Assembly: GCA_963739455.1 (NCBI GenBank)
Contig: CAVUAK010000001.1
Coordinates: forward strand, 160,001-224,000
Reading direction: 5' to 3'
Length of the DNA stretch: 64,000 nt
Source of the DNA: an uncultured Gemmatimonadales bacterium
GTDB taxonomy: Bacteria; Gemmatimonadota; Gemmatimonadetes; Gemmatimonadales; GWC2-71-9
Shown: positions 8,480-51,648 of the stretch, piece after piece
Position numbering within the stretch: the first letter of the stretch is position 1
Layout: the number at the start of each line of letters is the position of its first letter
Program-made: the position numbers and the translations under genes
Notes under the pieces: model-generated
Told to the model about the DNA's origin: nothing
The model's input: the letters and a program-made list of their open reading frames with translations, nothing else
Database searches by the model: none

Positions 8480-11210
8480 GTGAATCCCACCCTGGACCGT
8501 CTCTCAGCCGCCCTCTCTGACCGCTACCGCCTCGAGCACGAGCTCGGCCAGGGCGGCATGGCCACCGTCTACCTCGCCGAGGACCTGAAGCACAGCCGCA
8601 AGGTCGCCATCAAGGTCCTGCACCCCGAGCTGAGTGCCTTGATTGGTGGCGACCGCTTCCTTACAGAAATCAAGACCACGGCCGGCCTGCAGCATCCCCA
8701 CATTCTCGGCCTCATCGATTCCGGCGCGGTTCCTCTCACGACTCACGCCTCACGCCTCACTGACGACAGTCGACTGTCGACTGATCTCTTGTATTACGTC
8801 ATGCCTTTTGTCTCGGGCGAGTCCCTCCGCAACCGGCTGACCCGCGACAAGCAGCTCCCCATCGACGACGCGCTCCGGCTCGCGAAAGAAGTCGCCAGCG
8901 CCCTCGACTACGCCCACCGCCAGGGCGTCGTCCACCGCGACATCAAGCCGGAGAACATTCTCCTGCAGGACGGCTCCGCCCTCGTAGCCGACTTCGGCAT
9001 CGCCCTCGCCGTGCAGCAGGCCGGCGGCAGCAGGATGACGCAGACCGGCATGTCACTCGGCACCCCCGCCTACATGTCGCCCGAACAGGCCATGGGCGAG
9101 CGCGACATCGGTGCCCGCAGCGATGTGTATGCCTTGGGTGCGATGACGTACGAGATGCTCACCGGCGAGCCTCCCTTCACCGGCCTCAACTCCCAGGCCA
9201 TCGTCGCGAAGGTGCTGACCGAGACTCCACCTCCGCTCCGCCCCAAGCGTCCGACGGTGAGCCCTGCAGTCGAGCACGCGATCCTCACCGCGCTGCAGAA
9301 GCTCCCCGCCGATCGCTATGGAAGCGCGAAGGACTTCGCCGAGGCCCTCGACGGCAAGGGTGGGAACTATGCAGCCACGGTAGTTACCTCACGTCCTCAC
9401 GTCCTCACGTCTTCACGTCAGCGCCTTCCCGTCCTTGCCGCCTTGGTGCTTACGGCCATCCTCGCGGCACTCGCGGGAAGGGCGTCCCGTGCGGAGCCCC
9501 AGCCTCCAGTCGCACGCTACACCACCCTCCTCCCCGCCGACCAGGCCCTCGCCGACACGCGCGGCCATCGCATCGCCATTTCTCCTGACGGGTCCCGCCT
9601 GGTCTACTCCGGGAGCGGGTCCGACGGGTCACAACTCTGGCTCCGGAACCGGAACCAGCTCCGCGCTACGCCGATTCCCGGCGCCAGTCACCCGACCGTG
9701 CCGTTCTTCTCGCCCGATGGCCAGCGCGTCGGGTACACCGTCGAGGGAAACACCGAGATCAAGGTCGTGAGCCTCACTGGTGCGCCGCCCATTACCGTCG
9801 CCGACTCCGGTATTGGCGCCGACGGTGCCACCTGGAGCGAGGACGGCTTCATCTACTTCGACGGGCTCACGGGCGGTGGCACCACCGGCCTCATGCGCGT
9901 GGCACCAAACGGTGCGAAGGTCCTGGAACAGGTCACCACCGTCGACACCGCGCGCCGCGAGCAGGATCACTTCTGGCCCAACGCCTTGCCGAAGGGGCGC
10001 GGGGTGCTCTTCACCATCCAGGAGCGCGGGAACAATGAGGAGCGGAGCCAACTGGCCGTCCTCGACACGAAGACCATGAAGGTGCACACCCTGGTCCAGG
10101 CGCTCACCGGTCGCTACGCACCAGGCGGATACCTCCTGTACGTCACGGCGGCAGGCGAACTGCTCGCGGTGAAGTTCGACCTCGACCGTCTCGCCGTGGT
10201 GGGGGAGCCGTTCGCCATTGCCAGCGGTATTGCGCGACGGTCCTTCGGCGCCATCGACCTCGCCATCTCGATGTCGGGGACCCTCGTGTACCAGGCCGGC
10301 GGGGCCGCGATGGAGCCGAGTCAGGTCGTCTACGTGAGCCGCGACGGCTCGGCCGTCCCGATCGACACGAGTTTCGTGGGTGACTTCCAGACCCTGGCGC
10401 TCTCCCCCGACGGCCGCCGGCTCGCCATCAGCAAGATCGACGGCACCGAGCAGCAGGTCTGGATCAAGCAGCCCCAATGGTCCGCTCAGCAAGCTCAGCT
10501 TCGAGGGAAATCGCAGCATCCGACCCACCTGGTCGCCCGATGGCCAGTACGTGGGATTCATCGGCAACCAGGGCGCCGGTCCCCAGTTCTATCGCAAGCG
10601 CGCCGACGGAATCGGCGCGACGGAACCGGTGCTCACCATGCCGGGCCGCGTCGTCAATGCGGCGACCTGGAGCCGCGACGGGAAGTGGCTCGCGTTCCTC
10701 ACCAACCCTGCCGACCTCTTTGCCCGCCGTACCAGTGGTGACACCTCCCTGGTTTCCCTCGCGAACTCCCGGTTCGAGGAGATCACCCCGTCGATCTCCC
10801 CCGATGGGCGCTGGCTGGCGTACTCGTCCAACGAGTCGGGCGAGTTCGAGATCTACGTGCGTCCCTTTCCCGACGCCGGATCAGCCCGGTGGCAGGTCTC
10901 GACCGGTGGTGGCTTCGAGCCGTTGTGGTCTCCCGACGGCCACGAGTTGCTCTACTGGAGCGGCGGCGAGAACACCACCGGCCAGCTCAACACAGTGGCC
11001 GTGCTCCCGGGGCCAACGTTCATCGCCGGCCAGCGCCACATCCTCCCCATCCAGGGCTCGCCCTACGTCGGCACGCCCGGCTCCTGGGACATCACCCGCG
11101 ACGGCAAGCGCTTTGTCATGATTCGCCAGGGCGCCGGCAAGGGTGATGACCGGGAACTCGTAGTGGTCGAGAACCTTTCCGCCGAACTCACCGCGGAGCA
11201 TGCGCGGTAA
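8480..11210 (+). CDS. Ser/Thr protein kinase K1: kinase-TM-PD40/TolB-like beta-propellers; frameshift near 10470
   Basis: GQGGMATV, VAIK, HRDIKPEN, DFG, GTPAYMSPE; repeated SPDG motifs. Confidence 0.92.
8726..8785 (+). repeat. In-frame heptamer-repeat insert in K1 kinase N-lobe loop
   Basis: GCGGTT CCT CTCACGA CTCACGC CTCACGC CTCAC TGACGACAG TCGACTG TCGACTG. Confidence 0.85.
9387..9418 (+). repeat. Octamer repeat CYTCACGT x4 in K1 linker
   Basis: GTAGTT A then CCTCACGT x3, CTTCACGT. Confidence 0.9.
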
Positions 11211-11214
11211 CCAG

Positions 11215-11250
11215 GTCATTGCGAGGCCTGCGTAGCAGGCCGCGGCAATC
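11215..11250 (+). repeat. REP/RPE-like palindrome
   Basis: GTC ATTGC GA GGCCTGC GTA GCAGGCC GCG GCAAT C. Confidence 0.75.
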
Positions 11251-11367
11251 CCGTTGCATGGCACGGAGCCTTCCTGCGCATTTTCGATGACGTCGTCATT
11301 GCCGGTTCGGGCAACCTTGGGCAATGCCGACTTGCCCACCTTCACCCGCCGAGCGTACGCTATGGCT

Positions 11368-11919
11368 ATGCCTGACGTGGCCCGCTGGACCCGCGCTGAA
11401 GTACTGGCGCTTCCCGACGATGGGATGCGCCACGAGCTCATCGACGGCGAACTGATCGTGACCCCCACCCCACGCGTCAGGCACCAGGAAGGGGTCACAG
11501 CGCTGACGGCGCTCCTCCTGCCATACGTGCACGAGCATCGACTCGGCCGCTTCTTTGCCTTGCCAGCCGATCTCGAGGTGCTTCCCGACCAGCTCACCCA
11601 GCCCGACCTGTTCGTGGTGCCGCCCGGCCCACGGTTCGATCGCTGGGAGGACGCCCCAACACCCACCCTCGTCATCGAAGTCGCCTCGCCATCCACGGCC
11701 CGGTACGACCGCGGCACCAAGCGCCGGTTTTACCAGCGCGGTGGCGTGCCCGAGTACTGGATCGTCGACCTCGACGCCCGGCTTGTGGAACGCTGGCGCC
11801 CCAGCGACGCCAGGCCGGAAGTGCTCGACCACGACATCACCTGGCAGCCCAACCCGGACGTCCCACCGCTCCGCATCGACCTGGATCAATTCTTCGCGCA
11901 GGTCATGGACGCAAGGTAG
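11368..11919 (+). CDS. Uma2/DUF820 family nuclease, copy 2
   Basis: Same length (552 nt) and motifs as copy 1; start chosen by alignment to copy 1. Confidence 0.9.
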   Translation: MPDVARWTRAEVLALPDDGMRHELIDGELIVTPTPRVRHQEGVTALTALLLPYVHEHRLGRFFALPADLEVLPDQLTQPDLFVVPPGPRFDRWEDAPTPTLVIEVASPSTARYDRGTKRRFYQRGGVPEYWIVDLDARLVERWRPSDARPEVLDHDITWQPNPDVPPLRIDLDQFFAQVMDAR

Positions 11920-11942
11920 GAGATCTCCTGCCAACATAAATC

Positions 11943-11979
11943 TTGCCGCTGTGTTACAGGTGCGCTACATTGTAACACA
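11943..11979 (+). promoter_or_regulatory. Putative vapBC promoter with operator inverted repeat, probably leaderless
   Basis: TTGCCG-17 nt-TACATT; TGTGTTACA (11950-58) / TGTAACACA (11971-79); ATG 7 nt after the -10. Confidence 0.7.
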
Positions 11980-12281: not shown

Positions 12282-12688
12282 TGCTCGACACCACCGTGCT
12301 GATCGCCGCCGAGCGACGTGCGCTGCGCTTCGATGACCTGCTTGGCGCCATCTCGACTGAGCCGATCGCCCTGAGCGCCGTCACCGCGTCGGAGTTGCTC
12401 CACGGCTGCCATCGAGCCCGCGACCGCGGTACCCGCTCGCGTCGATTGGCGTTCGTTGAGGGATTGCTGGGCGCGCTCCCGATCCTGCCCTTTGGCCTGG
12501 TCGAGGCGCGCCGGCACTCCGAGCTCTGGGCAGATCTCGCCGGCAGTGGTACCCTCATCGGTGCACACGACATGCTGATCGGCGCCACGGCGCTTGCGCA
12601 TGGCTATGCCCTGGCCACCTTGAATCAGAAGGACTTCGCCCGCATCGACGGCTTGCAGCTCGTCCCCGTTGAGCGCTTCACCACATGA
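12272..12688 (+). CDS. vapC: PIN-domain toxin
   Basis: LDTTVLI, SELLHG, DMLIGATA, TLNQKDF. Confidence 0.9.
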   Translation: MGVMLDTTVLIAAERRALRFDDLLGAISTEPIALSAVTASELLHGCHRARDRGTRSRRLAFVEGLLGALPILPFGLVEARRHSELWADLAGSGTLIGAHDMLIGATALAHGYALATLNQKDFARIDGLQLVPVERFTT

Positions 12689-15457
12689 CCACCGCCGACC
12701 GTCTCACCGCAGCTCTCTCCGACCGCTATCGCCTCGAGCGCGAGCTGGGCCAGGGTGGCATGGCCACCGTCTATCTCGCCGAAGACCTGAAGCACGGTCG
12801 CAAGGTCGCCATCAAGGTCCTGCATCCGGAACTCTCCGCCGTCATCGGCGGCGATCGGTTTCTGGCCGAGATCAAGCTCACCGCAAGCCTTCAACACCCC
12901 CACATCCTCGGCCTGATCGACTCGGGAGCCGTTTCACTAACGCCTCACGCCTCACGACTCACTGACGACAGTCGACTGTCGACTGATCTTCTGTACTACG
13001 TCATGCCCTTCATCGAGGGGGAGACCCTGCGCGGTCGCCTCACCCGCGAGAAGCAGCTCCCCGTCGATGACTCCATCCGCCTCACGAAGGAAGTCGCCGC
13101 CGCCCTCGAGTTCGCCCACAAGCGCGGCATCATCCATCGCGACATCAAGCCCGAGAACATCCTGCTGCAGGACGGTCAGGCCCTCGTCGCCGACTTCGGC
13201 ATCGCCCTCGCCGTGCAGCAGGCCGGCGGCTCCCGCATGACGCAGACCGGCATGTCGCTCGGCACTCCCGCCTACATGTCGCCCGAACAGGCCATGGGCG
13301 AACGCGACATCGGCGCTCGGAGCGACGTGTACGCGCTGGGCGCCATGACCTATGAGATGCTCACCGGCGAGCCGCCCTTCACCGGCCCCAACTCCCAGGC
13401 CATCGTCGCGAAGGTGCTGACGGAAACTCCGCCACCGCTCCGCCCCAAGCGCCCCACCGTGCCACCCGCGGTCGAGCACGCCGTCCTCACGGCCTTGCAG
13501 AAACTCCCCGCCGATCGGTTGGCAGCCGGCGAAGGAGTACGCAGAGGCGCTCGAAGGGAGAGGCAGCAACTATGCATCGACGGTAGTTACTTCACGTCCT
13601 CACGTCCTCACGTCTTCACGTCTCCATCACGTCCTCACGTCCTCACGTCCAGGGCGCGCCCTCGCCTGGAGCGCCGTCGCCGCCCTGATCGCAGCCACCG
13701 CCATGTGGGGCTTCATGCGGCGCGGAACGACGGGGGCGCCCGTAAGGCGCTACGCCCTCGCCCTCCCCGCAAACCAGCCGATGGAATGGAGCCGCATCGG
13801 GACCAACATTGACCTGTCTCCCGATGGCTCACGCTTTGTCTACGTCGGGCCCGGCGAGCAGGGCGGCAGCCTCTGGCTCCGCGATCGTGATCGGCTTGAG
13901 GCGACACCGATTCTCGGCACCTCCAATGCCATCAATCCCCGTTTCTCGCCCGACGGACGACAGATCGTCTTTTCCTCCGGAAGCCTGCTCGAGCTGAAGC
14001 TGGTCGGCGTCGACGGTGGCTCCCCCGTCACGATCGCCCGGGGAGGGTCGGGCGCGAGCGGCGGTGTCGCCTGGAGCGATGATGGCTGGATCTACTTCGA
14101 CGCCGTTCCCGGCCTGAGCCGCGTGCGCCCCAACGGCGATAGCGCACAACTCGTGGTACCGATCGATGCCTCGCGCGGCGAGGCGGGGCAGGCGTGGCCC
14201 GAGGCCGTCCCGGGCGGACGCTGGCTGGTGTATCGCACCCGGAGCAGTAACGCACTCGAGGAGTTTGATATCGGCGTCAGCGACCTGAAGACCGGTGCGC
14301 GCCACGTTCTCACCAGGGGCATCTTCGCCCGACGCATCGGGGCGGGGCTCTTCATCATCGTGCGCGCCGACGGTGTGCTCACTCTCGCCCGCGTCGATGA
14401 GCGCACCATGACGCTGCGCGGATCGCCGGTGCCGGTGCTCGACGGCCTCAAGACCAAGCTGCTGGGCTCGGTCGACCTCACTGTCAGCGGTGGCACCCTG
14501 ATGTATGTGCGGGGCGGATCGAATTCCTACCGGGTGTCTGCCGTCTGGGTCACCCGCGAAGGTGCCGCGAAGCCGATCGAGCCCGCCGTGGTCGTGACAC
14601 CGCCGAACAATCGCGGGCTCGCCCTTTCGCCCGATGGTCGCCGCCTCGTCGTGGACATGGTGGGGCCCAAGTCCACCGACGTCTGGGTGAAGGAGCTGCC
14701 GGCAGGCCCATTCTCCCGGCTCACCTTCGATGGCCTTGCGAACTTTGCGCCTTTCTGGAGCAGCGACGGCAAGTACATCATGTACCTCCTCAACCCCGGG
14801 CAGGGTTCCAATATTGTGCAGGTGTGGCGCAGGAAGGCCGACGGCAGTGCGCCCGCCGAGTCGGTGTTCGCCACCTCCCGTTCGACTATCGAAGCGTCCA
14901 TGTCGAAAGACGGTGAGTGGCTCTTCTATCGGATCAACAACGATTCCACCGGCCCTGACGTCTACGGAATCCGCCTGGGGGGCGACACGACGCCCGTACC
15001 TCTCCTCACCGGTCCAGCCGCCGAGACGAACCCTTCGCTCTCTCCCGACGGTCACTGGCTGGCATATGTGTCGAACGAGTCCGGAACCCTCGAGGTCTAT
15101 GTCCGGCCCTTCCCCCACGTGAACGCGGGACGGTGGCAAGTGTCGATCGGCGGCGGCACCGCGCCCCGCTGGGCACACAGTGGCCGCGAGCTCTTCTTCG
15201 TCTCCGGCACCGAGATGATGATGGCCCCCATCACCACGTCGGGGGGCGCATTCTCTCCCGGCACGCCCCAGAGGCTCTTCACCGGGTTCGGCACCCAGTT
15301 TCTCCAGGGGTTCATCCCCTACTACGACCTGAGCCCCGATGACAGGAACTTCCTCATGATGGGTATTCCTGTCGGCGACAGTACGCGTTCGCAGCTCATC
15401 ACCGTCGAGAACTGGCTTCAGGACGTGAACGCGAAGCTCGCGGCGGCACAACAGTGA
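12685..15457 (+). CDS. Ser/Thr protein kinase K2: kinase-TM-PD40 propellers; frameshift near 13520
   Basis: Kinase motifs in ORF 12685, propeller repeats in ORF 13703. Confidence 0.9.
12928..12987 (+). repeat. In-frame heptamer-repeat insert in K2 kinase loop
   Basis: GCCGTT TCA CTAACGC CTCACGC CTCACGA CTCAC TGACGACAG TCGACTG TCGACTG. Confidence 0.85.
13590..13648 (+). repeat. Octamer repeat (4+3 units) in K2 linker
   Basis: GTAGTT A, CYTCACGT x4, CTC, CATCACGT, CCTCACGT x2. Confidence 0.9.
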
Positions 15458-18203
15458 CCAGCACCGAAGCCCGCCTCACCGCGTCTCTTGCCGATCGCTA
15501 CCGCGTCGAGCGCGAGCTCGGCCAGGGCGGCATGGCCACCGTCTACCTCGCGGAGGACCTCAAGCACAGCCGCAAGGTCGCGATCAAGGTCCTGCATCCC
15601 GAGTTGAGCGCCGTCATCGGCGGCGACCGCTTCCTCACCGAAATCAAGGTCACCGCCAACCTCCAGCACCCGCACATTCTCGGCCTGATCGACTCGGGAG
15701 CTGTTTCACTCACGCCTCACGCCTCACGCCTCACTGACGACAGTCGACTGTCGACTGATCTCTTGTATTACGTCATGCCGTACGTCGTCGGGTGAGTCCC
15801 TCCGCAACCGTCTCGCGCGCGACAAGCAGCTCCCCATCGACGACGCACTCCGGCTTGCGAAGGAAGTCGCCAGCGCGCTCGACTATGCCCATCGCCAGGG
15901 CGTCGTCCACCGCGACATTAAGCCCGAGAACATCCTGTTGCAGGACGGTTCGGCCCTCGTCGCCGACTTCGGCATCGCGCTGGCCGTCCAGCAGGCCGGC
16001 GGCTCTCGCATGACCCAGACCGGCATGTCGCTCGGCACGCCCGCCTACATGTCGCCCGAACAGGCCATGGGCGAACGAGACATCGGTGCGCGCAGCGATG
16101 TGTACGCGCTCGGCGCGATGACCTACGAGATGCTCACCGGGGAACCGCCGTTCACTGGCCTCAACTCCCAGGCCATCGTCGCGAAGGTGCTGACGGAATC
16201 TCCGCGCGCTATGCGCCCTGCGCGCCCTAGCGTCCCCCCGGCAGTGGAACATGCCGTGCTTACGGCGTTGCAAAAGCTCCCCGCCGATCGCTACGGCACA
16301 GCGAAGGGAGTTTGCGGAGGCGCTCGACGGTAAGGGCGGTAACTACGCATCCACCGAGGTTACTTCACGTCCTAACGTCCTCACGTCTTCACGTCTACCT
16401 CACGTCCTCACGTCCTCACGTCCAGGGCGCGCCCTTGCATGGAGCGCTATCGCGGCCGCGATTGCAGCCACGGCTATGTGGGCCTTCGTGTGGCAGGGAA
16501 GGACGGGCGCGCCCGTAAGCCGCCAACGCGTCGTCCTCTGGCAGCATCCCCGCGGCCAGTTCCTCTCGGCCGGCCAGAGCCTGATCGCATCACAGGCCGC
16601 AATCGCCCCGGACGGATCGAGCATCGTCTATACCGATTCCATCGATGGCGTCATCCACCTGATGCGCAAGCTTCGGAGCGAGCGCGAGCCCGTACCGATC
16701 GCTGGCACCGAGGGAGCGGTGTCGCCCTTCTTCTCGCCCGACGGGAAGTGGATCGGATACCTCACGACCGATGGAAGGCTCCGCAAGGTCAGTGTCGACG
16801 GGGGCGGCTCGATCACCCTCGCCGAAGACGCGCAGCGGACCCAGGTCTCGGCCGCATGGCTGGACAATGGGACCATCGTCTACGCCGGCGCGGTGGCGGA
16901 CATGAAGAGGGTCTCCGCCGACGGAGGTCCGAGTTCGCCCATACGGGCCGACAGTAGCCTGCGTCGTCACGCGCTGCTCACGCTCTCTCCCCTTCCGGGC
17001 AGTCGGGGATTCCTTCACACGAGTTGCCCCGGCAACTGCGCCATCGAGTCCGCCGTGTATGTCTTCGATTTCGCGGCCGATAGCTCGCGGTTGCTCGTGC
17101 CGAATGCCGCCGGCGCCTGGTACTCACCCACCGGCTACCTGCTCTACACCGACCGCGCGGGCGGCCTGTATGCTGCGGGGTTCGACCCGAACCGGCTTGT
17201 GATGACGACCCCGGCCGTACCTGTCCTCGAGGACATCGTGCCGACCACCCTGGCGCTGTCAGCATCGGGGAGTGCGCTCTACTCCATCACCGCCGGCAAG
17301 CAGAAGCCATCCGAGCTCATGTGGGTCTCGCGCGATGGCAGCGCAGAGCCGGTCGACTCGGGCTGGCGGGGCGAGTTCGATTACCCCGCCGTCTCCCCCG
17401 ACGGCAAGGCGCTCGCCGTGAGCGTCCGTGATGGCCCAACCCACATCTGGATCTGGCGCGCCGACGGCACCCGGCAGAAGCTGACCCAGGAAGGGACCGT
17501 CAACTGGCGTCCGTCCTGGTCACCGGATGGAAAGTCCATCGCATTTATTTCCAACAAGCGCGGTGGCGGAAACCAGGACGCCTATGACGCCTACCGCATG
17601 CCCGTCGACGGCAGTGCGCCGCCCGACCTGCTCCAGCGGCACACCTTCGGCCTCTGGGAAATCGAGCTCTCGCGCGACGGTCAGTGGCTCATCGTCCGCG
17701 CTGACGAGGCGGTCGGCAGCTCCAACATTCGTGGCCGGCGCCTGGTGGGCGACACGACGCTGCTTCCACTCGTGGTGGACCCGAGCGTCAGCATGCAGGC
17801 GGCCCTGTCACCCGACGAGCATTGGCTCGCATACTCCGCCAACCCGACCGGCCTGATGGAGATCTACGTCGCCCCCTTCCCCTCGATGAAGTCCACCCGG
17901 CTCGTCTCCACCGGCGGCGGCACCGAGCCGCGCTGGGCCCACAGCGGCAAGGAACTGTTCTTCAAGAGCGGTGGCAAGCTGATGGCCGTCGACGTGTTGC
18001 CGGGCGAGGCCTTCACCTTCGGCACGCCCCACGCCCTGTTCCCGCTCACCGGCTATCTCGCAGCCAGGAACCGGCCCGAGTACGACGTGGCGCCCGATGA
18101 TCGCCGCTTCCTGATGATCCGGGTGCCGAAGGAATCGAACGAGGAAGTGGTGTACGTCGAGAACTGGTTTACGGAACTCAGGGCGAAGATGGAGAAGAAG
18201 TAG
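15454..18203 (+). CDS. Ser/Thr protein kinase K3: kinase-TM-PD40 propellers; frameshifts near 15790 and 16307
   Basis: Kinase split over ORFs 15454/15938, sensor in ORF 16251. Confidence 0.9.
15700..15759 (+). repeat. In-frame heptamer-repeat insert in K3 kinase loop
   Basis: GCTGTT TCA CTCACGC x3 CTCAC TGACGACAG TCGACTG x2. Confidence 0.85.
16363..16421 (+). repeat. Octamer repeat (4+3 units) in K3 linker
   Basis: GAGGTT A CTTCACGT CCTAACGT CCTCACGT CTTCACGT CTA CCTCACGT x3. Confidence 0.9.
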
Positions 18204-20474: not shown

Positions 20475-23400
20475 CCACGCCGGAGCGCCTCACTGCTGCC
20501 CTGGCCGACCGTTACCGCATCGAGCGCGAACTCGGCGCCGGCGGCATGGCCACCGTCTATCTCGCCCACGACCTCAAGCACAACCGCCAGGTCGCCATCA
20601 AGGTGTTGCGCCCCGAGCTCGCCGCCGCACTCGGCGCCGATCGCTTCCTCCGCGAAATCGAAACCACCGCCAACCTCCAGCACCCCCACATTCTCCCCCT
20701 CTTCGACAGCGGGGCTGTTTCACTCACTGACGACTCACGACTGCCGACTGCTGGAAGCCAGCTCCTCTTCTATGTAATGCCGTTTGTAAACGGCGAAACC
20801 CTCCGCGCCCGTCTCGCGCGCACCGGTCCATTGCCGCTCGATGAAGCAGTCCGCTACACCACCGAGATCGCCGACGCCCTCGCCAAGGCCCACAAGGCCG
20901 GCGTCGTCCACCGCGACATCAAGCCCGAGAACATCTTCATCGCCGACGGCCACGCACTCGTGCTCGATTTCGGCATCGCGAAGGCGGTGGCTTCCAGCCA
21001 CCGTCCTGAGGGCCCTCCGGGCCCGAAGGACCCCGCGAACCCGAGCGGGCCCTCTATCCTGACCACCCTCGGCGTTTCCATCGGCACCCCCGCCTACATG
21101 GCCCCGGAACAGGTGGCCGGCGACCCCAACATCGACCATCGCGCCGATCTCTACGCCCTGGGACTGGTCGCGTATGAGATGCTTGCCGGTGGGTCGCCCT
21201 ACACCGCTACCACGCCAGCCCAGCAGATGGCGGCGCATATCGCCCAGGCGCCTGCGCCGGTCGAGCTGAAGCGGAAGGATTGCCCACCGGCACTCGCCGC
21301 CCTCGTCATGCGCTGCCTCGCCAAGAATCCCGATGAACGCTGGCAGTCGGCCGACGACATCGTCAATCAGCTGCGCGCGCTCGACACTGCTCCGCTGCAG
21401 CGGTCCGCGGCCCGGGGCGGTCAGCGCATCGCGATCATTGCCGGCGCGCTTCTCTTGGGCCTTGCCGCCGTCTTCATGTTCCGCCGCAACGCGCACCCCG
21501 CACCCAGTGCCGCGTCAGCCAATGTCATCGCCGTCCTCCCCTTCACCGTGCGCGGTGGACCGCAGTTCGCCTATCTCGGCGAAGGGATCGTCGACTTGCT
21601 CAGCACGAGCCTCGACGGCGCCGCCGGTCTCCGCAGCGTCAACGCCCACGCCCTGCTCGGGTACGCTGGACAGGATGCGTCGGCCATGAGCGTCGAGCGG
21701 GCCGGCGCAGTGGCCGATCACTTCAAGGCCGGGCTATTCGTGATGGGAGACGTACTCGAGGTCGGCGGCAAGCTTCGGCTCAGTGCGTCGCTGTTCGATC
21801 GCGCCAACGAGGCGAAGCCACTCGCCGAGGCCACGGTGGACGGCGATCCAGGTGACGTGACCTCCCTCGTAGACCTGCTCGCCACTCGCCTCGCCGCCGA
21901 TCGCTCCGCCGAGGGCGGCGCGCGCCTCACGCGCACCGCTGCGGTCACGACTTCGTCCATTCCCGCCCTCAAGGCTTACATGGAGGGCGAGCAAGCCTAT
22001 CGCGCCGGGCAATACGTCGCCGCCACCAAGGCATTTCAGGAGGCCGTCACCGCCGACACCGGCTTCGCCCTCGCCTTCCATCGACTCGGCATGGCGCAGG
22101 AGCGCATGGCCTGGGCTGACGATTCGCGTCGCTCGGCAGAGCTCGCCTTTCTCCACAGCGACCGGCTCTCGGCGCACGACCGCCGCTTCCTCGAGGCGCT
22201 CCTCACAATGCGCCGCGGCCACGCGGGAGAAGCGGAACAGCAGTTCCGCGCCATCGCGCAATCATGGCCCGATGACGCGGAGGCCTGGTATCAGCTGGGA
22301 GAGCTCTCCTTCCATGGCAACCCACTGCGTGGCCAGTCGTTCACTGATTCGAGGACTGCCTTCTCCCAGGCGCTCTTCCTCGACCCCGGCGATCTCGGCG
22401 CCCTCTACCACCTCATGCGCATCGCCGCGCGCGATGGCAACCAGCCACTGCTCGATTCGCTCTCGGCTCGCTTCTACAAGCTGAGCCCCGAGGGCGATCG
22501 CACCCTCGAGCTGCGCGCGCTTCAGGCCCTCGCCACCGGCGATTCGGTTGCCGTGGACTCCGTCATGGCTGCTTTCGGCCGTGCGCCCGATGGTACCCTC
22601 GCGATCGGCATGTGGTCACTGGCGGTCTTCGCCCAGAGCCTGCCTTCCGCCAGCCGCCTGGCTCTGCTCATGACTGAGCCGGCACGCCCGCGGGGCGTGC
22701 GCGCCCAGGGGCATGTGTACCTCGCCTATCTCGCGCTGGCGCAGGGACGGCTCGCTCTGGCGCGCACCGAACTCGCAGCGGCCTCCGCGCTCGGAGGAAG
22801 CGAGGCGCCCCTGGTGGACGCCTGGTTCAACACCCTCCCCTTCGTTCCCGCGACCCGGGGAGAACTCGATGCCTCGCGCGCGCGCCTGGCCCGGTGGGAC
22901 GCGACCGATACCACGCTGCTGAGTACCCAGCCGAGCGCGTTCTTCAGTGGGCACAACGGCGTGCGCCCCATCCTCAAGCTGTATGTGCTGGGCCTCCTCG
23001 ACATCAGGCGTGGTGCCACCGCCGAGGCGATGAAAGGCGTGGAGCAGTTGCAGGGGATGGGAGCCGCGACCGAGGGGCCTCCGCTCGCGCTGGAGTTGGC
23101 CGAGGGACTCCGCGCCCAGATGGCACTCGCGAAGGCCCAGCCCGACAGCGCGCTCGCATCCCTCGAGGCGCTGCACCTCGAGGGATGGTACGAGCTCACC
23201 TTCATGTCCCCGTTCTATGGCGGGGCACTGGAGCGTTTCACCCGTGCCAAGTTGCTGGCGACACAGGGCCGCAACAACGACGCCCTCGCCTGGTACCGTG
23301 GCCTCGGTGAGAACTCGACGCCTGAACTGGTGTTTCTCGGGCCGGCAATGCTGGCCCAGGCGCGTATTCAGGAGAAGCTCGGCCACCCGAAGGAAGCGGC

Positions 23401-32600: not shown

Positions 32601-32717
32601 TCTTCCCTCTTCCCCTCTTCCCTCTTCCCTCTTCCCTCTTCCCTCTTCCCTCTTCCCTCTTCCCTCTTCCCTCTTCCCGCAGTTACCTCAAGTCTTCAAG
32701 CCCTCAAGTCTTCAAGC
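32601..32717 (+). repeat. TCTTCCC x11, GCAGTT, CYTCAAGY x4 between convergent genes
   Basis: Read directly; the last octamer contains the K9 stop codon. Confidence 0.95.
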
Positions 32718-34951: not shown

Positions 34952-35014
34952 TGATGGGCCGGCTTTGGGATGGCACCAATATCACCCCCGTTACCCGAGG
35001 CCTCAACATCTGCC

Positions 35015-35098
35015 TCTTCCCTCTTCCCGTAGTTTCTGTTCCCTCCCCGCCCTCCCCGCCCTCCCCGCCCTCCCCGCCTTCCCCGCCTTCCCCGCCTT
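35015..35098 (+). repeat. TCTTCCC x2, GTAGTT TCTGTT, CCCCGCCYT x6 in divergent intergenic region
   Basis: Read directly. Confidence 0.92.
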
Positions 35099-35140: not shown

Positions 35141-36518
35141 ATGCCACGAAATCCCTTGCGCATTCGCTCCATCCGGCGCGCCATTATCGCAGCCCTGTCC
35201 TGCCTCGCCCTGGCGCACCCCGCCATGGCGCAGCAGGAGTATTCCCTCGCGGCCCCGATCCTCACCCTCGACGAGGCCATCGTCCTCGCCCTCAAGGGCA
35301 ACTACAGCGTCGAGAACGCCACCCTCGGTGTCGCCAAGTCCGGCGCCACCGTGAGCGCCATCAAGACCCATCGCCTCCCCGTCCTCCAGCTCGACGGTGC
35401 GGCCAACTACAGCATCCTGAAGCAGCCCTTCACCGTCCCACAGGGCGCCTTCGGCGACTATCCCATCATCGGGCCGATCCCGTACCAGGACACCACCATC
35501 GGTTCCATCGAGGGCTTCTTCGCCACTGCCTCGATCGGCGTTTCCCAGCCGCTCCTGCAGCTCTATCGCACCGGCCTCCTCGTCGAGCAGGCGGAAGTTG
35601 ACGACTCCATCTCGAGCCAGGGTCTGCGCAACAAGCAGCAGGACGTCGTCAAGTCGGTCAAGTCGCAGTACTACGAGATCCTCAAGACCGAGAACACCCT
35701 GCAGGCCACCAAGGCGAGCATCGCCTTCTACCGCGAGTTGGTGAAGCTGGTCGACAACTACGTGAAGCAGGAAGTGGCGCAGGAATACGAGCTGCTCGAC
35801 ACCCAGGCCCGGCTCGCGCGCGCCGAGCACAGCGCGCGGAGCCAGGGTAACGCGCTCATCACCGAGAAGGAGCGGCTCAACAACCTGCATGGGGCGCGAC
35901 CCCAAGACGCCGTTCCGCGTCAGTGAGGAACCGCCCGCGGCCCGCGCCGGCTATCCCTCCATGGTCGCCGCCGAGTCCATCGCGATCGCCCAGCGGCCCG
36001 ATGTGCAGGAGAAGATCCTCAAGCTCAAGCAGGCGGAGACCGGCGCGCGCATCACCCGCGCCGACTACATCCCGACGCTCAACCTCGTCATGCAGCTCAC
36101 CCAGCTCTTCAACGTCGACTTCGTGCCGCCCACCAACTGGATCGTCGGGCTCCAGATGCGCTGGGACATCTGGGACTGGGGCAAGAAGGGCAACGACCTC
36201 ACGAAGAAGAAGGCCGACATCGCGCAGGCGGCGAACGACCTCGATGACACGAGGGCGCAGGTCGCCATCGAGGTGGACAGTCGCATCCGCGAGCTCGAGG
36301 AAGCCCAGGAAATGGTGAAGGTCACGGAAATCAGCCAGGCGGCTGCCACGGAGAAGCTTCGCGTGCTTACCAACCAGTACAAGGAGCAGTCGGCGCTGCT
36401 CAAGGATGTGCTGCAGGCCGAGTCCGAACTCGCCGAGGCCAACGCGCAGCACGCCGACGCCGTTCTCTCCGCATGGAACGCCCAAGCCCAGCTCGACAAG
36501 GCACTGGGCCAGACGTGA
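35141..36518 (+). CDS. TolC family outer membrane protein; frameshift near 35887
   Basis: Signal peptide, LTLDEAIVLAL..N, AIAQRPDV, YIPTLNL, WDIWDWG. Confidence 0.85.
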
Positions 36519-37654
36519 ACCTCTCAACTCTGAACTCTCGACTCTGGACCTTTGTCGCTCTCTGTGCGGCGGCATGCAAGTCCGCACCTCCAAGCGAGCC
36601 CCCCGGCACCCCGGTTCGCACCCAGCTCGTCGAGACCGCGGGCGCCACCAGCGGCATCCGCTATTCCGCCAACGTCATCCCTCGCGCCCAGGTCGACGTC
36701 GCCTTCAAGGTCAACGGCTACGTCGACGCCATCCGCCAGGTGAAGGGCGCCGATGGCCGCACCCGCGACCTGCAGCAGGGCGACGTCGTGCCCGCCGGTT
36801 CCATGCTCGCCAAGGTGCGCGACACCGACTACGTCGACAACGTGAAGAAGGCGCAGGCCAACCTCGACAAGGCCAACGCGGCAGTCGAGAAAGCCACCAA
36901 CGATTTCCGCCGTGCCACCAACCTCAAGGCCACCAATAGCATCACCGGCCCCGACTACGACTCGGCGAAGCAGGAATACGAAACCGACAAGGCCGCCGTC
37001 GACGGCGCCAAGGCCCAGCTCAACGAGGCCCAGACCAACCTCGGCTATGCCACGCTGGTCGCACCAATGAATGGCGTGCTGCTGCAGCGGAAGATCGAGG
37101 TCGGTGACCTCGTCGGTCCCGGCACCACCGGCTTCGTCCTCGCCGACGTCTCCTATGTAAAGGTGGTGTTCGGCGTGCCCGACGTGATGCTCAACCGCGT
37201 GTCACTGGGCCACAAGATCCAGATCTCCACCGCCTCCGTGCCCGGCAAGCTCTTCACCGGCACCGTCACCGCCATCTCCCCCTCGGCGGACGCCAACACC
37301 CGCGTCAGTGAGGTCGAGGTGTCGGTGCCCAATGCTGATGGCGCGCTCCGCGACGGCATGGTCGCGTCCCTCGAGATCGGCGCGAAGCCTGGCCCGGCCG
37401 CCACTGCGCGCGCCGAGGCAGTGGCGGTTCCGCTCGCCGCCGTGGTGCAGTCAGGCCAGGGCAATGCCTCCTACGGCGTCTTCGTGGTCACCACCGAAGG
37501 CAAGAAGGACGTCGCGAAGCTCCATCAGGTGGAGCTGGGGCAGGTGGTGGGCAACTCCGTGATCGTGAACTCCGGCCTCGAGTCCGGCGCGCGCATCATC
37601 GTCACCGGTGCCACGATCGTGCGGGACGGTGATACCGTCCGGCCCATTCAGTAG
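36515..37654 (+). CDS. RND efflux periplasmic adaptor (MFP), lipoprotein
   Basis: AAAC lipobox, VAFKVNGYV, LVAPMNGV, GLESGARII. Confidence 0.9.
   Translation: MNLSTLNSRLWTFVALCAAACKSAPPSEPPGTPVRTQLVETAGATSGIRYSANVIPRAQVDVAFKVNGYVDAIRQVKGADGRTRDLQQGDVVPAGSMLAKVRDTDYVDNVKKAQANLDKANAAVEKATNDFRRATNLKATNSITGPDYDSAKQEYETDKAAVDGAKAQLNEAQTNLGYATLVAPMNGVLLQRKIEVGDLVGPGTTGFVLADVSYVKVVFGVPDVMLNRVSLGHKIQISTASVPGKLFTGTVTAISPSADANTRVSEVEVSVPNADGALRDGMVASLEIGAKPGPAATARAEAVAVPLAAVVQSGQGNASYGVFVVTTEGKKDVAKLHQVELGQVVGNSVIVNSGLESGARIIVTGATIVRDGDTVRPIQ
36523..36550 (+). repeat. Heptamer repeat x4 in MFP signal peptide n-region
   Basis: CTCAACT CTGAACT CTCGACT CTGGACC. Confidence 0.8.
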
Positions 37655-37661
37655 GCATCGC

Positions 37662-40600: not shown

Positions 40601-41321
40601 CATCAGCCTTGGCATGGAGACCCAGCGCATCCGCCGGCAGGATCAGGTGCGCATGATGACGGTCTTCTGCTTCCCCATTCCCGGTGCGCTGGCATCCGAT
40701 GTCTACAACGACGTCGCAGCGCCGATCGCCGAGCTGAGCCGGAACATGTCTCCCGGCTACAAGCTCGTGGTGTCCGGTGAGCAGGCGAAGACCACCGAGG
40801 GATTCGGCCAGCTGCTCGGCGTCATGGCCATTTCGGGCTTCATGATCTACCTGGCGCTGGTGCTGCAGTTCCGCAATGCGGTGAAGCCATTCATCGTGTT
40901 CGCGGCGGTGCCCTATGGCCTCGTGGCTGCGATGGCATCGCTCTGGGTCATGCAGAGCAGCTTTGGCTTCATGGCGCTGCTCGGCATGGTGAGCCTCATC
41001 GGCGTCATCGTGAGCCACGTCATCGTGCTCTTTGACTTCATCGAGGAAATGCACGCGAAGGGGGAGCCGTTCGAGGATTCATTGCTCGACGCCGGCATCA
41101 TCCGCCTGCGGCCGGTGCTCATTACCGTGCTCGCCACCGTGCTGGCACTGTTTCCGCTGGCGCTGCATGGCGGCCCGCTCTGGCAGCCGCTCTGTGTTGC
41201 CCAGATCGGTGGCCTCCTCTTCGCCACGGTGGTCACGCTGATTCTCGTGCCGGTTATCTATTCCATCGCCGTCCTCGATCTCAAAGTCATCAAATGGGAA
41301 ACGAAGGAGTCCGAATCATGA
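37662..41321 (+). CDS. AcrB/AcrD/AcrF family RND permease, several frameshifts in the 5' third
   Basis: WPGTSAQEIEQLVT, GLLVDDPVV, RLRPVLIT, LWQPL. Confidence 0.9.
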
Positions 41322-41791
41322 ACCTCACGTCCTCACGCCTTCACGTCCTCACGTCTCGCGGAGCGCTCACGTCTTCACGTCTTCACGTCCTCACGTCACG
41401 CGCCGCCGCGATCTTCGTACTCGCACTGCTCCCCGCCCGCGCTGCGGCGCAGTCCATTGCCGGCGTGTGGTTTACCGAGGACAGTTCATCCAAGGTCACC
41501 ATCACCCAGAGCGGCAACGCCTACACCGGCAAGGTCAGCTGGGTAAAGAAGGATGGCGCCGTGGACGCGAAGAACAGTGATGCTTCGCTCCGCACCCGTC
41601 CCATCCTCGGCATCGACATCCTCACCGGCTGCACCGGCGACGCGACATCCGCCAAGGGCTGCCGCATCTACGCGCCCAGGAAGGGCTCCACCTACGACGG
41701 CGAGCTGAACCTCGACAAGGATGGAACGCTGAAGGTGAAGGTGAAGGCCGGTATCGGCGGGAAGACCCAGACTTGGACCCGCGCCTCTTAA
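41318..41791 (+). CDS. DUF2147 family secreted protein with repeat-derived N-terminal extension
   Basis: IAGVWFTED, D.KN....LRTRPILG, IYAPRKGSTY, KTQTWTR. Confidence 0.8.
   Translation: MNLTSSRLHVLTSRGALTSSRLHVLTSRAAAIFVLALLPARAAAQSIAGVWFTEDSSSKVTITQSGNAYTGKVSWVKKDGAVDAKNSDASLRTRPILGIDILTGCTGDATSAKGCRIYAPRKGSTYDGELNLDKDGTLKVKVKAGIGGKTQTWTRAS
41323..41396 (+). repeat. Octamer repeat, two blocks of four, at DUF2147 N-terminus
   Basis: CYTCACGY x4, 10-nt spacer, x4; encodes LTSSRLHVLTSR twice. Confidence 0.9.
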
Positions 41792-47518: not shown

Positions 47519-47542
47519 GCGCTTCACTATCTTTCAGTACCC

Positions 47543-50500
47543 ATGAAATCACTTCGCCTGCTTGCCCTGCTGGGTCTCGTCCTGGTGATGACCCGGCCGC
47601 TCCCCGCCCAACAGCTCCCGTACCGCACCGGTCAGTGGATTCCCGACTCCCTCGGCAATCATCGCGTGGTCGTCCACGTCGGCGCGCCGTCGCCAGGCGG
47701 TGCGCGTCCACATTCCCTGGCGCCGCCCCGATGCGAAGCCCGAGGCCGTCGAGATCATCGCCGTCGGGCCCCGCCGGCACCCGCATCGCCAATCTGTATC
47801 GCCGCAGCATTACCCGCGAGTTCGGTGACCTGGCCTTCCAGCCGGTCGATGGCCCTGGCGACTACTACCTCTACTATCTGCCCTATCGCGGGTCGATCAC
47901 TTCCAACTACCCGCGGATCTTCTATCCGGCGCCCACTGTAACCGCGGATGCCGCCTGGCAGGCATCAACGGTGGCACACTGGACCACGCTCCCGCGCGCG
48001 AACGTCGTCGCAATGGAGTCGATCGACGACTTCAACAGCTTCTCCCCCATGCAGGTCATCGCAACACAGGCGGAGACACAGGCGCTGGTGAGGAAGGCGG
48101 GGAATGCACCGTTCATTCTCTTCGCCGAGGACCGTGCACATCCCGGTACGCATGCGGAGCGACCTGCCCCAGAGATGGATCGCGAGTGGCGCTGGCGGCG
48201 CCGTCACCGGTGAAGCGCATCGCGGCGAATGGTTCGCCTTCCAGGTCGTGGTCTACGCTTCGAAGCAACCGCTCGACAGCGTATCCGCATCTTTCAGTGC
48301 CCTCCCCGCCCTCCCCGCCCTGGGCGCCTTCACCTGCGTCAACGTCGACGGCATCGACTGGCGCGGTCGGTCTTTCACTCGCAACGTCACCATCGCCAAG
48401 GGCGAGGTCTACCCTCTCTGGTGCGGCGTCCAGGTCCCGATCGACGCGAAGCCCGGCCGCTACATCGGAACGGCTACCGTAGTCGCTGTTCCTCCTCACG
48501 CAGTCGCCGTTCCTCCTCACGCTTTTCAGCGTCTTCCCATGGCCCTCACCATCCTCCCCGACACCATCGCTGCTGCGGGAGACAACGATCCGGCGCGCCT
48601 CTCCCGCCTCCGCTGGCTCAACTCGACGCTGTACCAGGATGACGGGCTCGTTCCACCCTACACACCAGTCACCGTCACCGGCGCGACACTTGGCGTGCTT
48701 GGCCGTGATCTCCGCATCGGTGCCAATGGTCTCCCCGAGTCGATTCGCAGCTTCTACACCCCGGAGATGACCTCCATCGGTTCTTCCCCTCACGAGCTGC
48801 TTTCCCAGCCGCTCTCACTCGCGGTTGAGAGCGCACACGGGTCGCTCCTCCCTTGGTCCTCCGGCCCGCTCACCTTCACGAAGAAGGCCGAGGGCGCCGC
48901 TGGCTGGAGCGTCACCAGTACCAGCGGTCCGCTCACGATCAGGCTGACGGCGCAGCTCGATTTCGACGGCACCGTCGAATACCAGGCGGCGCTCAGCAGC
49001 ACCGCCAACGTCAATCTCGCCGACGTCCGCCTCGAACTGCCGATGAAGAACGACGCCGTCCGCTACTTCATGGGCATGAACCTGAAGGGCGGCAAGCGCC
49101 CAGCGAGCTACGACTGGAAGTGGGAAGTCACCCGTAACCAGGACGCCGCCTGGCTGGGCGACGTGAACGGCGGCATCCAGTTCACCCTCAAGGACGACCA
49201 CTCCTACGTCCGACCCCTCAACACCAACTTCTACCAGCAGAAGCCGCTGGTCATGCCCGCCTCCTGGGCCAACCGTGGCCGGGGCGGCTGCACCTTCCGT
49301 GAAACGGCCGCCATATATAGGACAACCTGCTTCAGCGGCCCTCGCACGCTGATCGCCGGTGACACACTGCACTACGACTTCCGGCTGATGATCACACCGT
49401 TCCACCCGATCGACCCGGCCCAGCACTGGAAGGAGCGCTACTTCCACGCCTACGTGCCGCTCGACTCGGTGGCGAAGATGGGCGCCAACGTGATCAACGT
49501 GCATCACGCGACGCCCATCAATCCCTTCATCAACTACCCCTTCCTCCGCCCCGACACCATGCGGGCCTACATCGACTCGGCCCACGCCCGGCAGATGAAG
49601 GTCAAGATCTATTACACGGTGCGCGAGCTCACCAACCGCGCCCCCGAGCTCTGGACCCTGCGCACGCTCAACGATGAGGTCCTCGCCGACGGTCCCGGCG
49701 GCGGATGGTCCTGGCTCCAGGAGCATGTGGAGGGGAGCTACCTCGCTGGCTGGTTCGTCCCCGAGATCAGTGACGCCGCCCTCGTCACCAGCGGTGTGTC
49801 GCGCTGGCACAACTTCTACATCGAGGGACTCGACTGGCTCGCGCGGAACGTCGGCATCGACGGCCTCTATCTCGATGACGTCGCCTTCGATCGCACCACC
49901 ATGATGCGCGCGCGGAAGGCGCTGGAGCGGAACCGCCCCGGATCGCTCATCGACCTCCACAGCGCCAACCAGTACAACCCGCGCGACGGCTTCGCCAGCA
50001 GCGCCAATCTCTACCTCGAGCACTTCCCCTTCATCGACCGCCTCTGGTTCGGCGAGTACTTCGACTACGACTCGCAACCCGACTACTGGCTCGTCGAAAT
50101 CTCCGGTATTCCCTTCGGCCTCATGGGCGAGATGCTCGAGGGCGGCGGCAATCCCTGGCGCGGCATGCTGTTCGGCATGACCAACCGCCTTCCCTGGTCC
50201 GGCGATCCCCGCCCCATCTGGCAGGAGTGGGACCGCTTCGGCATCCAGGACACGAAGATGATCGGCTGGTGGGTGCCGGACCCACCCGTTACCACCGGCC
50301 GTAGTGATGTCCTGGTCACCACTTATGCCGGAAACGGAAAGGCCTTGCTCGCGATTGCGAGCTGGGCCCCCGATACCGTGAGCGTTCCGCTCCTCATCGA
50401 CTGGAGGGCGCTCGGTCTCGACTCGGCGCGAACTACCATCACTGCTCCCGCCATCGATAGCTTTCAGGTTGCTCGTGAGTTCAAGCCGGGCGAAGCGATC

Positions 50501-50548: not shown

Positions 50549-50562
50549 GAACGAGGCCCGAG

Positions 50563-50922
50563 ATGCTCCGCGCCACCACCCTCACGGCACTTGCTGCCGT
50601 CCTCGCACTCGTCGCGTGCGACTCGAACAACCTACCGGATCCCGCGCCTAGCGTCTCCATCGTCACCAATGCCAGCGCGCTGGGACCGAACGCGTTCGAC
50701 CCGAATCCATTCACCCGGAGCTTCAACGCTGGAAGCCGGGTCGCCTGGGCCAACAACGATGGCGTCGTACACCGGCTCGTGTCCGTGGCCCCCGCACCGC
50801 TTTTCGACTCCGGCGATATCGCCCCTGGGGCGACCTTCGAGTTCACCTACTCCGCGCGCGGCACCTACGCCTATCATTGCTCCATTCACCCGTCTATGGT
50901 CGGCACCATCACTCTGAACTGA
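50563..50922 (+). CDS. Cupredoxin/plastocyanin-like lipoprotein
   Basis: LVAC lipobox; W.N.DG..H and YHCSIHPSMVG copper ligands. Confidence 0.85.
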   Translation: MLRATTLTALAAVLALVACDSNNLPDPAPSVSIVTNASALGPNAFDPNPFTRSFNAGSRVAWANNDGVVHRLVSVAPAPLFDSGDIAPGATFEFTYSARGTYAYHCSIHPSMVGTITLN

Positions 50923-50935
50923 GCCACGAGGTACC

Positions 50936-51589
50936 GTGCCGGACGCCCAGCCGCCGACCAATCGTACTCGCGTCCGCCGCCTCCCCGAGCGCGGCGCCTA
51001 TGATCGCGAGACCATCTACGCGATCCTCGATGCCATGCCGGTGGCCCACGTTGGCTACACTCTCGACGGCCAGCCCTTTGTCACCCCGACGCTGCAATGG
51101 CGCGAGGGGAACCACGTCTACTGGCACGGTTCCGCCGCGAGCCGCATGCTGCGCAGCATCGAGGGATCACCCGTCTGCCTCACCGTCACCCTTATCGACG
51201 GCATGGTCCTCGCCCGCTCCGGCTTCAATCATTCCATGAATTACCGCTCCGCCATGCTGCTAGGCCGCGCACGAGTCGTCAACGATCCCGCTGAGAAGGA
51301 GGCGCGGCTCAAGAACTTCGTCGAGTCGCAGTTTCCCGGTCGCTGGGACATCCTCCGCCCCATCACCACCCAGGAGTTGAAGGGCACCAGCGTGCTCACC
51401 ATGCCGATCGATGAGGCATCAGCCAAGGTGCGCACCGGCGAACCGCATGACGAGCCGGAGGACGAGGCGCTCGACATCTGGGCCGGCGTCATCCCGATTC
51501 GGTTCGAGGTCATGCCGCCGGTCGCCGACCGGCATGTGCACGCCGATCGCCGGCCTCCCACTCACGCATCCACCTTCCGCATCGGCTAG
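50936..51589 (+). CDS. Pyridoxamine 5'-phosphate oxidase-like flavin-binding protein (NimA-like)
   Basis: RRLPERGAYD, HGSAASRM, LARSGFNHSMNYRS. Confidence 0.88.
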   Translation: MPDAQPPTNRTRVRRLPERGAYDRETIYAILDAMPVAHVGYTLDGQPFVTPTLQWREGNHVYWHGSAASRMLRSIEGSPVCLTVTLIDGMVLARSGFNHSMNYRSAMLLGRARVVNDPAEKEARLKNFVESQFPGRWDILRPITTQELKGTSVLTMPIDEASAKVRTGEPHDEPEDEALDIWAGVIPIRFEVMPPVADRHVHADRRPPTHASTFRIG

Positions 51590-51593
51590 GCGC

Positions 51594-51648
51594 CACCGCC
51601 TTCCCCGCCTTCCCCGCCTTCCCCCGTCCTCCCCGCCCTCCCCGCCCT
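51594..51648 (+). repeat. Nonamer repeat CCCCGCCYT x~6
   Basis: Read directly; ends 4 nt before the padR -35 box. Confidence 0.9.

Follow-up and report, generated by a model that had tools for sequence, protein, structure and literature searches.

Short tandem repeat tracts of a Gemmatimonadales chromosome, their four-helix-bundle cassettes and their orientation along a sawtooth GC skew

How does a single bacterial chromosome come to carry the same short tandem repeats in unrelated genes and in intergenic DNA? The question is raised by a stretch of 64,000 nucleotides (the window) from an uncultured Gemmatimonadales bacterium, positions 160001-224000 of contig CAVUAK010000001.1 (C1), in which tracts of 7-, 8- and 9-bp units recur. 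In the genome as a whole (G000; 3.60 Mb, 4 contigs), five repeat families each flank one paralog of a four-helix-bundle (FHB) protein gene of PF05635, and solitary tracts are oriented along a sawtooth GC skew. Dispersed heptamer repeats and the '23S IVS protein' (intervening sequence protein) family have both long been unexplained; they are linked here by one genome in which five paralogs are matched to five repeat families. The assembly is rated 83.7% complete, yet it is collinear with and equal in length to a 3.54-Mb contig of a congener (G006). Many of its open reading frames (ORFs) are split, as long-read indels would give.

A scan of G000 with eight repeat families, each written as a regular expression, found 468 sites: 10 cassette arms, 142 arms forming 71 doublets (inverted tract pairs), and 316 solos (tracts outside cassettes and doublets). 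Tandem tracts numbered 208 for period 7, 104 for period 8 and 121 for period 9; the first 1 Mb of C1 held 62, 36 and 45, against 2, 0 and 0 in a triplet-shuffled control. In the window the family scan returned 17 sites (8735-51648), and Tandem Repeats Finder (TRF) listed three further short tracts (35013, 48299, 48481), which confirms the positions given in a preliminary description of this DNA. That description counted at least 18 tracts. The sites are real, but independent events are fewer, because 12 of the 17 lie in Ser/Thr kinase paralogs at two positions (a loop after HPHI..DSG, or a linker behind the kinase domain) and the tracts of kinases K1 to K3 are near-identical. It had also called all tracts C-rich on the + strand, which holds for 17/17 sites in the window as a local property; both strands are used genome-wide.

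The tracts follow a fixed grammar. Runs of 3, 4 and 5 units number 31, 91 and 6 for heptamers and 34, 64 and 10 for octamers, and nonamer runs peak at three to four units (48/30), confirming genome-wide the blocks of about four units first seen in the window. A 4-nt phase break stands ahead of the heptamer block in 52 of 80 cases, and 13 of 37 CCCTGTT runs end in a non-repetitive CCCGYWGTT-like tail. Only 4 of the 16 possible central variants of the CTNNCGA heptamer are common (GC 100, CA 84, GA 71, GT 32; GG occurs once), and adjacent units are identical in 101/256 cases (39%) versus 28% under independent draws; taken together, these two features fit neither plain slippage nor single-master copying. 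The four-unit block mode with fixed grammar is new here. On their G-rich strand the two largest families, CTGACGA and the octamer, lack GGG, which is present in the nonamer, CTCACCC and CCCTGTT families. All 71 doublets have the G-arm first, with no everted pairs, and their spacers are locus-specific, many resembling terminator hairpins. Doublets and cassettes are symmetric, mainly intergenic, enriched at convergent gene ends and evenly distributed; solos at gene 3' ends are G-sense in 43 cases and C-sense in 13. A four-unit heptamer block also lies within the gene for DNA polymerase III alpha (C1:1074.3 kb).

Repeat families and four-helix-bundle cassettes

A PF05635 profile search of G000 found five genes, and all five stand between an upstream G-rich arm and a downstream C-rich arm, each pair from one family (AACGCCT, octamer, nonamer, CTGACGA and CTCACCC, respectively). 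Same-family inverted pairs 130-700 bp apart in G000 are cassettes only. Extension to 5 kb gave no further bracketed gene and a single pair of solos, with no gene fully between the arms, and a custom FHB profile found no sixth FHB gene in G000. The preliminary description had suggested several gene families as companions of the tracts, and it is the FHB/Avd-like one that stands. GxxExxY (PF13366), reverse transcriptase (RT; PF00078) and Y1/RAYT (PF01797) had no match in profile searches of G000, and the two Uma2 genes in the window have no bracketing arms. Ku and two dnaE loci are present in G000, none of them tied to tracts.

Relatives were used to follow the association beyond this genome (30 relatives plus G000, of which the set of the genus, g1, comprises 11 genomes). 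PF05635 gave 85 matches in 24 genomes; 53 of these loci were examined, including all 26 of the genus, and an arm unit was called in 46 of the 53. Arm unit and period cluster on the FHB protein tree, on which the 9-mer genes have an 8-mer gene as their sister, and a comparison of amino acids with unit bases gave clade-level covariation only. At three gene junctions, different paralogs with different arms occur among congeners, some of them inverted. Across 11 congeners and three families, all 9 combinations with the cognate gene had 23-237 pattern matches, and 22 of the 24 without it had 0-5 (Fisher p 1e-6, a value overstated because related genomes are not independent). The arm-family match, the co-occurrence among congeners and the tracking of the protein tree by unit and period are established; on the favoured model the cognate gene would specify the repeat family. 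Two FHB loci (L089 in G012 and L179 in G014) have an upstream arm in unusual orientation or a near-palindromic unit (AACGTTG, ACGTGTG).

The four G000 FHB proteins scanned all pass the TIGR02436 cut-off. One of them matches Xcc0516/2GSC (E 1e-23, TM ~0.8), followed by BT_0352 and then Avd. With the Avd protein of diversity-generating retroelements (DGRs; PDB 4DWL, 8UB7) it shares the four-helix-bundle fold, at TM ~0.7; unlike in a DGR, the four proteins score under the cut-off of the Avd model NF033474 (34.8 and 24.5 bits against 80), a reverse transcriptase (RVT_1) was found in none of the 11 genomes of the genus, and no template/variable repeat pair came to light, although no search was aimed at one.

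As a descriptive class such repeats are known, although the match between paralogs and families was not found in the literature searched; the comparisons that follow hold for the accessible parts of the papers cited. The GGGAATC repeats of Xanthomonas and GGGGAYT repeats of Nostoc, of the short tandemly repeated repetitive (STRR) type, are genome-wide and of unknown function (Rehm et al., 2015; PMC4692102). They resemble the tracts of G000 in their 7-bp units, four-unit mode, inverted pairs and G-strand just behind stop codons. Unlike them, G000 has eight coexisting families of 7, 8 and 9 bp, ties families to PF05635 genes, and shows coding overwrite and polarized solos; its CTGACGA and octamer families also have no G-tract in each unit, unlike what the quadruplex proposal in that paper describes. 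A term search of its accessible text gave no mention of 'four helix' or 'leading strand'. The TAACTGA repeats of Beggiatoaceae, cyanobacteria and Bacteroidetes, read as sites of a translational regulator (MacGregor, 2015; PMC4679880), are similar in having two to six heptamers, split sets, and positions beside start codons with some inside ORFs; 'four helix', 'intervening' and 'avd' have no occurrence in the part of that paper searched. REPIN/RAYT systems (PMC3116915, PMC6006769) likewise combine inverted doublets with singlets, and their repeats flank a gene dedicated to them, but in G000 the units stand in tandem as direct repeats, the gene between the arms does not encode an HUH transposase, and RAYT was not found.

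A further parallel is the 23S rRNA intervening sequence of Coxiella (S23p; PMC4990558), where, in the portion available, the same protein family lies between terminal inverted repeats that hold direct heptamers (GACAGAT) and form an RNA stem. The G000 cassettes differ in standing at protein-gene junctions, far from the 16S gene (C1:2580 kb; the 23S gene was not mapped separately), and in having arm units that recur at hundreds of gene-less sites. Their G-arm is behind a stop codon and their C-arm ahead of a start codon, so that in the transcript the insert might be looped out in the manner of an rRNA intervening sequence (accessible part of PMC4990558); in predicted RNA folds, made without a shuffle control, arm pairs with arm into a long stem in all five. 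Beyond the Coxiella arms, no paper linking PF05635 to dispersed repeats was found in a search whose coverage left out most subscription papers.

Alleles of the tracts and their strand polarity

Solo sites of G000 were compared with the DNA of G006, G008 and G009 (n=129, of which 51 were kinase-paralog matches). The G000 family was absent in 109 comparisons, shared in 11 and replaced by another G000 family in 9. In 34 of the 78 non-kinase pairs the relative had its own tract; in the others G000 was longer (24), equal (10) or shorter (10). A trans-acting cause, as argued for in the preliminary description, and a sequence-specific one, is supported by the same families and grammar at unrelated loci, by these empty alleles in congeners and by in-gene length differences, which in 51 of 56 pairs are divisible by 3.

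Pure insertion, as it was also proposed, found no support. In HisH, alignment across nine genomes is free of gaps and graded from a non-repetitive segment to four heptamers, with heptamer variants and amino acids that differ among G000, G003 and G008. A class I tRNA synthetase has a gap-free block in G000, G003 and G008 only, which are the genomes with the cognate gene. Growth from pre-existing local sequence, which the preliminary description had set against its own reading, is thus seen at these two genes, where tracts arise from seed-like sequence, and counts in part against that reading; elsewhere congeners have empty alleles. Five in-gene sites of equal length differ within the tract at 16/43, 20/45 and 20/44 of codon positions 1, 2 and 3, and in their flanks at 43/204, 38/201 and 84/205. 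Variable heptamer positions change between species among allowed variants one step apart. The in-frame gains and the gap-free cases mean that a tract can be inserted or can be written over seed-like sequence: net gain and same-length replacement both exist. Gap-free rewriting of core enzymes implies a DNA-level process that changes protein sequence, and such overwriting of conserved genes, together with replacement of one family by another at one site, is new here. Overall, the earlier interpretation is partly supported.

The solos are polarized along an unusual skew. Measured at four-fold sites, GC skew does not change sign between + and - genes. Along the chromosome it traces an inverted sawtooth that turns sharply from + to - at C1 ~79, 790, 1489 and 2459 kb, decays to near zero in between and has no switch at dnaA; a weak tooth lies at C3 ~300 kb. 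Landmarks of G000 otherwise describe an ordinary two-replichore axis: dnaA is at 882 kb, parS at 834 kb and the one dif at C2:41 kb, and the KOPS-like GGGCAGGG (KOPS, FtsK-orienting polar sequence) follows oriC to dif by 249:65, also in segments of opposite skew. The dif, parS and KOPS motifs used here are those we take to be the usual ones. An inverted sawtooth on a chromosome with classical KOPS and dif merits study by itself.

The G-strand of 282 of the 316 solos runs toward the nearest skew reversal, 95 of the 282 against the classical leading strand, and the proportion without kinase sites is 254/288. Less than 150 kb from a reversal there are 13-20 solos per 100 kb, and beyond 400 kb there are 1.5, while doublets stay at ~2 per 100 kb at any distance. 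Doublet arms have no clear asymmetry toward the centres (10 vs 5 near, 12 vs 14 far). Single heptamer units have the opposite strand bias (551 toward, 715 away). The preliminary description had proposed scoring the strand of the tracts against replichore and transcription. Transcription was rejected on the in-gene solos (35 C-sense, 36 G-sense), and the classical replichore was rejected as well, since the tracts follow the four-tooth skew.

Misassembly as the source of the sawtooth was rejected on the evidence of G006, which was sampled over 1.2 of its 3.54 Mb for skew and polarity. In this collinear genome three reversals recur at orthologous places (C7 ~3407, 2698 and 1919 kb) and the fourth is weak and at dif; 79 of 93 solos of its own families point inward. 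In two genomes from a different family, each sampled in 20 windows of 20 kb, the skew is classical or weak and tracts are few, and G019 has an upward switch at dnaA, so the sawtooth is established for genus g1 only. Within it, the geometry, decay and conservation of the polarity are clear. Tracts that map a conserved sawtooth independent of oriC, dif and KOPS suggest that forks or repair converge on fixed places inside the chromosome. Polarity toward a conserved multi-tooth skew is new and was not found in the literature searched, which also held no description of fork or repair convergence on fixed internal chromosome sites. In the accessible parts of the relevant papers, chromosomes of cultured Gemmatimonadota share with G000 a high gene-strand bias and rRNA near the terminus, but their skew switches once, at ter, and is called 'degraded' in a strain rich in repeats, unlike the several sharp reversals here (Tomasch et al., 2024; PMC11237797), and irregular skew is known with multi-origin replication in cyanobacteria (PMC7198777).

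What marks the centres was also sought. A PhoB-like box, GTTAC-N6-GTTAC (a label inferred from the pst operon), has only three exact occurrences in G000, of which those at 77 and 2460 kb lie at reversals, and a one-mismatch box lies 9 kb from a third reversal. The only two exact boxes of G006 are both at reversals, one at a site not used to derive the motif, and at the ortholog of the 2460-kb site G003 has box and reversal and G006 neither. A causal link is possible, with the odds against it. No extra dif site was found at the reversals, an Rfam search there gave nothing but tRNAs at the weak C3 tooth, and 11-14-mers shared among four reversal zones were set aside, since they resembled chance coding matches. 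The reversals at C1 ~2460.1 kb (L016) and G003 C6 ~73.1 kb have in common a conserved non-coding stretch of about 70 bp, in which three to four GTTAC boxes recur at a spacing of 11 bp; the DNA downstream differs. In the window, a PhoB-like GTTACA-N5-CTACA box (11953-11970, +) has a Uma2 gene on one side and a PIN-type toxin-antitoxin pair on the other, at a place without a reversal.

How the tracts may be written

Repair forks converge on a break, as work in E. coli has established. The explanation that we favour, at a probability of about one half for the whole, is that cassettes specify the repeats and that host patch synthesis writes them toward fixed centres. The tracts would be dispersed footprints of small cassettes, each a PF05635/TIGR02436 gene between a G-rich 5' and a C-rich 3' arm, with each FHB paralog specifying one family and its protein presumably binding single-stranded nucleic acid over about four units. 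New tracts would be built in place at seeds, either partial matches or the tract of an older family, by patches of ~28-46 nt that take the place of the sequence there and may or may not add length. Such a patch may arise when host polymerases switch template to an arm or tract already present, which the protein has matched up, and selection would retain in-frame events within genes. Solos would be written during strand-asymmetric synthesis toward three or four fixed centres, the G-rich strand being nascent, at a frequency that decays over 100-300 kb, and the same process would make the inverted sawtooth; repair forks may converge there on recurrent break or barrier sites. Both the writer of the tracts and the cause of the centres are inferred. 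The accessible part of SkewDB places G on the nascent strand.

A wider reading, held tentatively and short of an even chance, joins two claims: that PF05635 proteins are the specificity subunits of a widespread RT-free rewriting system, which would stamp the repeat of each on DNA during resynthesis, and that in this genus much of the chromosome is replicated or repaired toward three or four fixed centres other than the terminus. On this reading, to which we give the same limited credence throughout, the repeats would record chromosome maintenance outside the oriC-ter scheme, with GTTAC-N6-GTTAC boxes at several centres.

Several observations weigh against the cassette-directed patch explanation. 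To our knowledge, PF05635 proteins have no known catalytic activity. The cognate gene was not found in G001, with 21 octamer matches, or in G007 (60% complete), with 36 heptamer matches. CCCTGTT (49 hits), CTGAACY (27) and CTCTTCC (15) lack a cognate gene in G000, that of CCCTGTT being present in G009, and the CTGACGA-family gene of G000 is split across frames, probably by read errors. The same-length overwrite test covers 5 sites, and the HisH alignment looks gradual, so that stepwise mutation under a filter would fit it as well as single patches. Away from the nearest reversal point 34 of the 316 solos, and those of G006 near its dif-linked reversal have no polarity (4/10). No single element is common to all centres within one genome: the 790-kb reversal of G000 has no box, and no reversal accompanies its boxes at 172 and 3559 kb. 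Finally, to equate the G-rich with the nascent leading strand would be to follow a convention.

The main rival, which we consider unlikely though a serious contender, is molecular drive on binding sites, comparable to that on Chi or DNA-uptake sequences. Mutation and slippage would make candidates, the FHB protein would bind about four units and bias resection, repair or recombination without any template, and better-matching alleles would spread, in one orientation relative to the centres. The graded HisH alignment and the one-step species variants suit such drive, which explains gradual cases as well as patches do; the sharp cut-off above four units resembles a footprint, and polarity with decay fits a polar stop signal. 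Net gains of 30-60 bp with complete grammar are easier as patches, however, as are abutting families, the non-repetitive tails of CCCTGTT runs and swaps from 8-mer to 9-mer at one site, and drive requires frequent allelic recombination.

It is improbable that the tracts are written from RNA in the manner of telomerase or a DGR, with the transcript of the C-rich 3' arm in an Avd-like ring templating G-rich additions to 3' DNA ends. The fold common to FHB proteins and Avd, the long arm-to-arm stems of predicted RNA and the run of the G-strand toward the centres agree with such templating, but RVT_1 is absent from G000 and the 11 genus genomes searched, the NF033474 score is below the cut-off, and the unit order of solos copies no single arm. 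A transposition origin is less probable again, with doublets as REPINs or miniature inverted-repeat transposable elements (MITEs), non-autonomous and mobilized by a transposase of the HUH (RAYT/Y1) or another type, and solos as their remnants. It would account for the uniform doublet orientation and for cassettes inverted or replaced at the same junctions. Y1_Tnp, however, was not found in G000 and occurs in 1 of 11 congeners, one without any of the three families tested; doublet spacers are locus-specific and often terminator-like, no target duplication is evident on inspection, and gap-free overwrites are not transposition. Local slippage with mutational skew and selection for G-quadruplexes or terminators, lacking any trans-acting factor, has very little probability and is refuted as sole cause by the tracking of the cassette gene by family content across genomes, the variant grammar and the opposite bias of single units, for although local amplification does occur (11 x TCTTCCC; 12 heptamer units at C1:1491.7 kb) and the four-unit mode is read as quadruplex formation by Rehm et al. 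(PMC4692102, accessible part), the two largest families peak at four with no GGG on the G-strand.

Tracts of the window

The window is to the right of the C1 ~79 kb reversal, at a distance of 90-135 kb. Its tracts are listed in Table 1.

Table 1. Positions and composition of repeat tracts in the window
Site	Tract	Position	Strand	Comparison
K1 loop	CTCACG(C/A) block, 4-nt phase break, CTGACGA-family block	8735..8780	+	+48 bp in frame vs empty alleles
K1 linker behind kinase domain	four-unit CYTCACGT octamer block, head GTAGTTA	9387..9418	+	
K2 loop	copy of K1 loop tract, common to paralogs	12937..12982	+	+48 bp
K2 linker	two octamer blocks	13590..13648	+	
K3 loop	copy of loop tract	15709..15754	+	+48 bp
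K3 linker	two octamer blocks	16363..16421	+	
K5 loop	CTGACGA-family block	20727..20754	+	
K6 loop	CTGAACY block adjoining CTGACGA block	23746..23804	+	+57 bp
K6 linker	four-unit nonamer block (ACCCGCCYT)	24415..24450	+	
K7 loop	one unit, 4-nt break, four CTGACGA-family units	26487..26528	+	+30 bp
K8 loop	CTGAACY and CTGACGA blocks	29165..29223	+	+57 bp
K8 linker	octamer block and nonamer block	29784..29866	+	
3' end of minus-strand kinase	11 x TCTTCCC, tail CCCGCAGTTA, then four-unit CYTCAAGY octamer block	32601..32719	+	
Intergenic	short TCTTCCC run and six nonamer units	35013..35098	+	run absent from relatives
Start of HlyD-type membrane-fusion gene	CTGAACY block	36516..36551	+	CTCACGA tract in G008; G006 and G009 empty
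Start of DUF2147 gene	two octamer blocks	41323..41396	+	one block in G008 and G006; none in G009
Inside GH123 gene	short nonamer run, 2.6 units	48299..48321	+	
	21-mer x2, built of CTCACGC/GYWGTT tail motif of CTCACCC family	48481..48522	+	
Intergenic	six nonamer units	51594..51648	+	

The frameshift of K3 is one extra base, 3' of its loop tract and outside it. A sulfatase, kinases K2 and K3, AcrB and an asparagine synthase are in pieces (2692-5587, 12685-18203, 37608-41321 and 45588-47518), most likely through long-read indel errors. In the K8 linker a 24-mer of the TCATCCTGAGCGCAGCGAAGGA type (29815-29838) separates the octamer from the nonamer block; similar words fill the kinase loop of G008 and G009, and the 24-mer may be a separate small dispersed element with the same landing site. 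A repeat of 24-bp period, outside the eight families, separates two transporter genes (54922-55028). Elsewhere on C1, islands at 2545-2556 kb and ~1525-1600 kb, the first dense in toxin-antitoxin-like small genes, have almost no skew and no tracts and are probably recent acquisitions.

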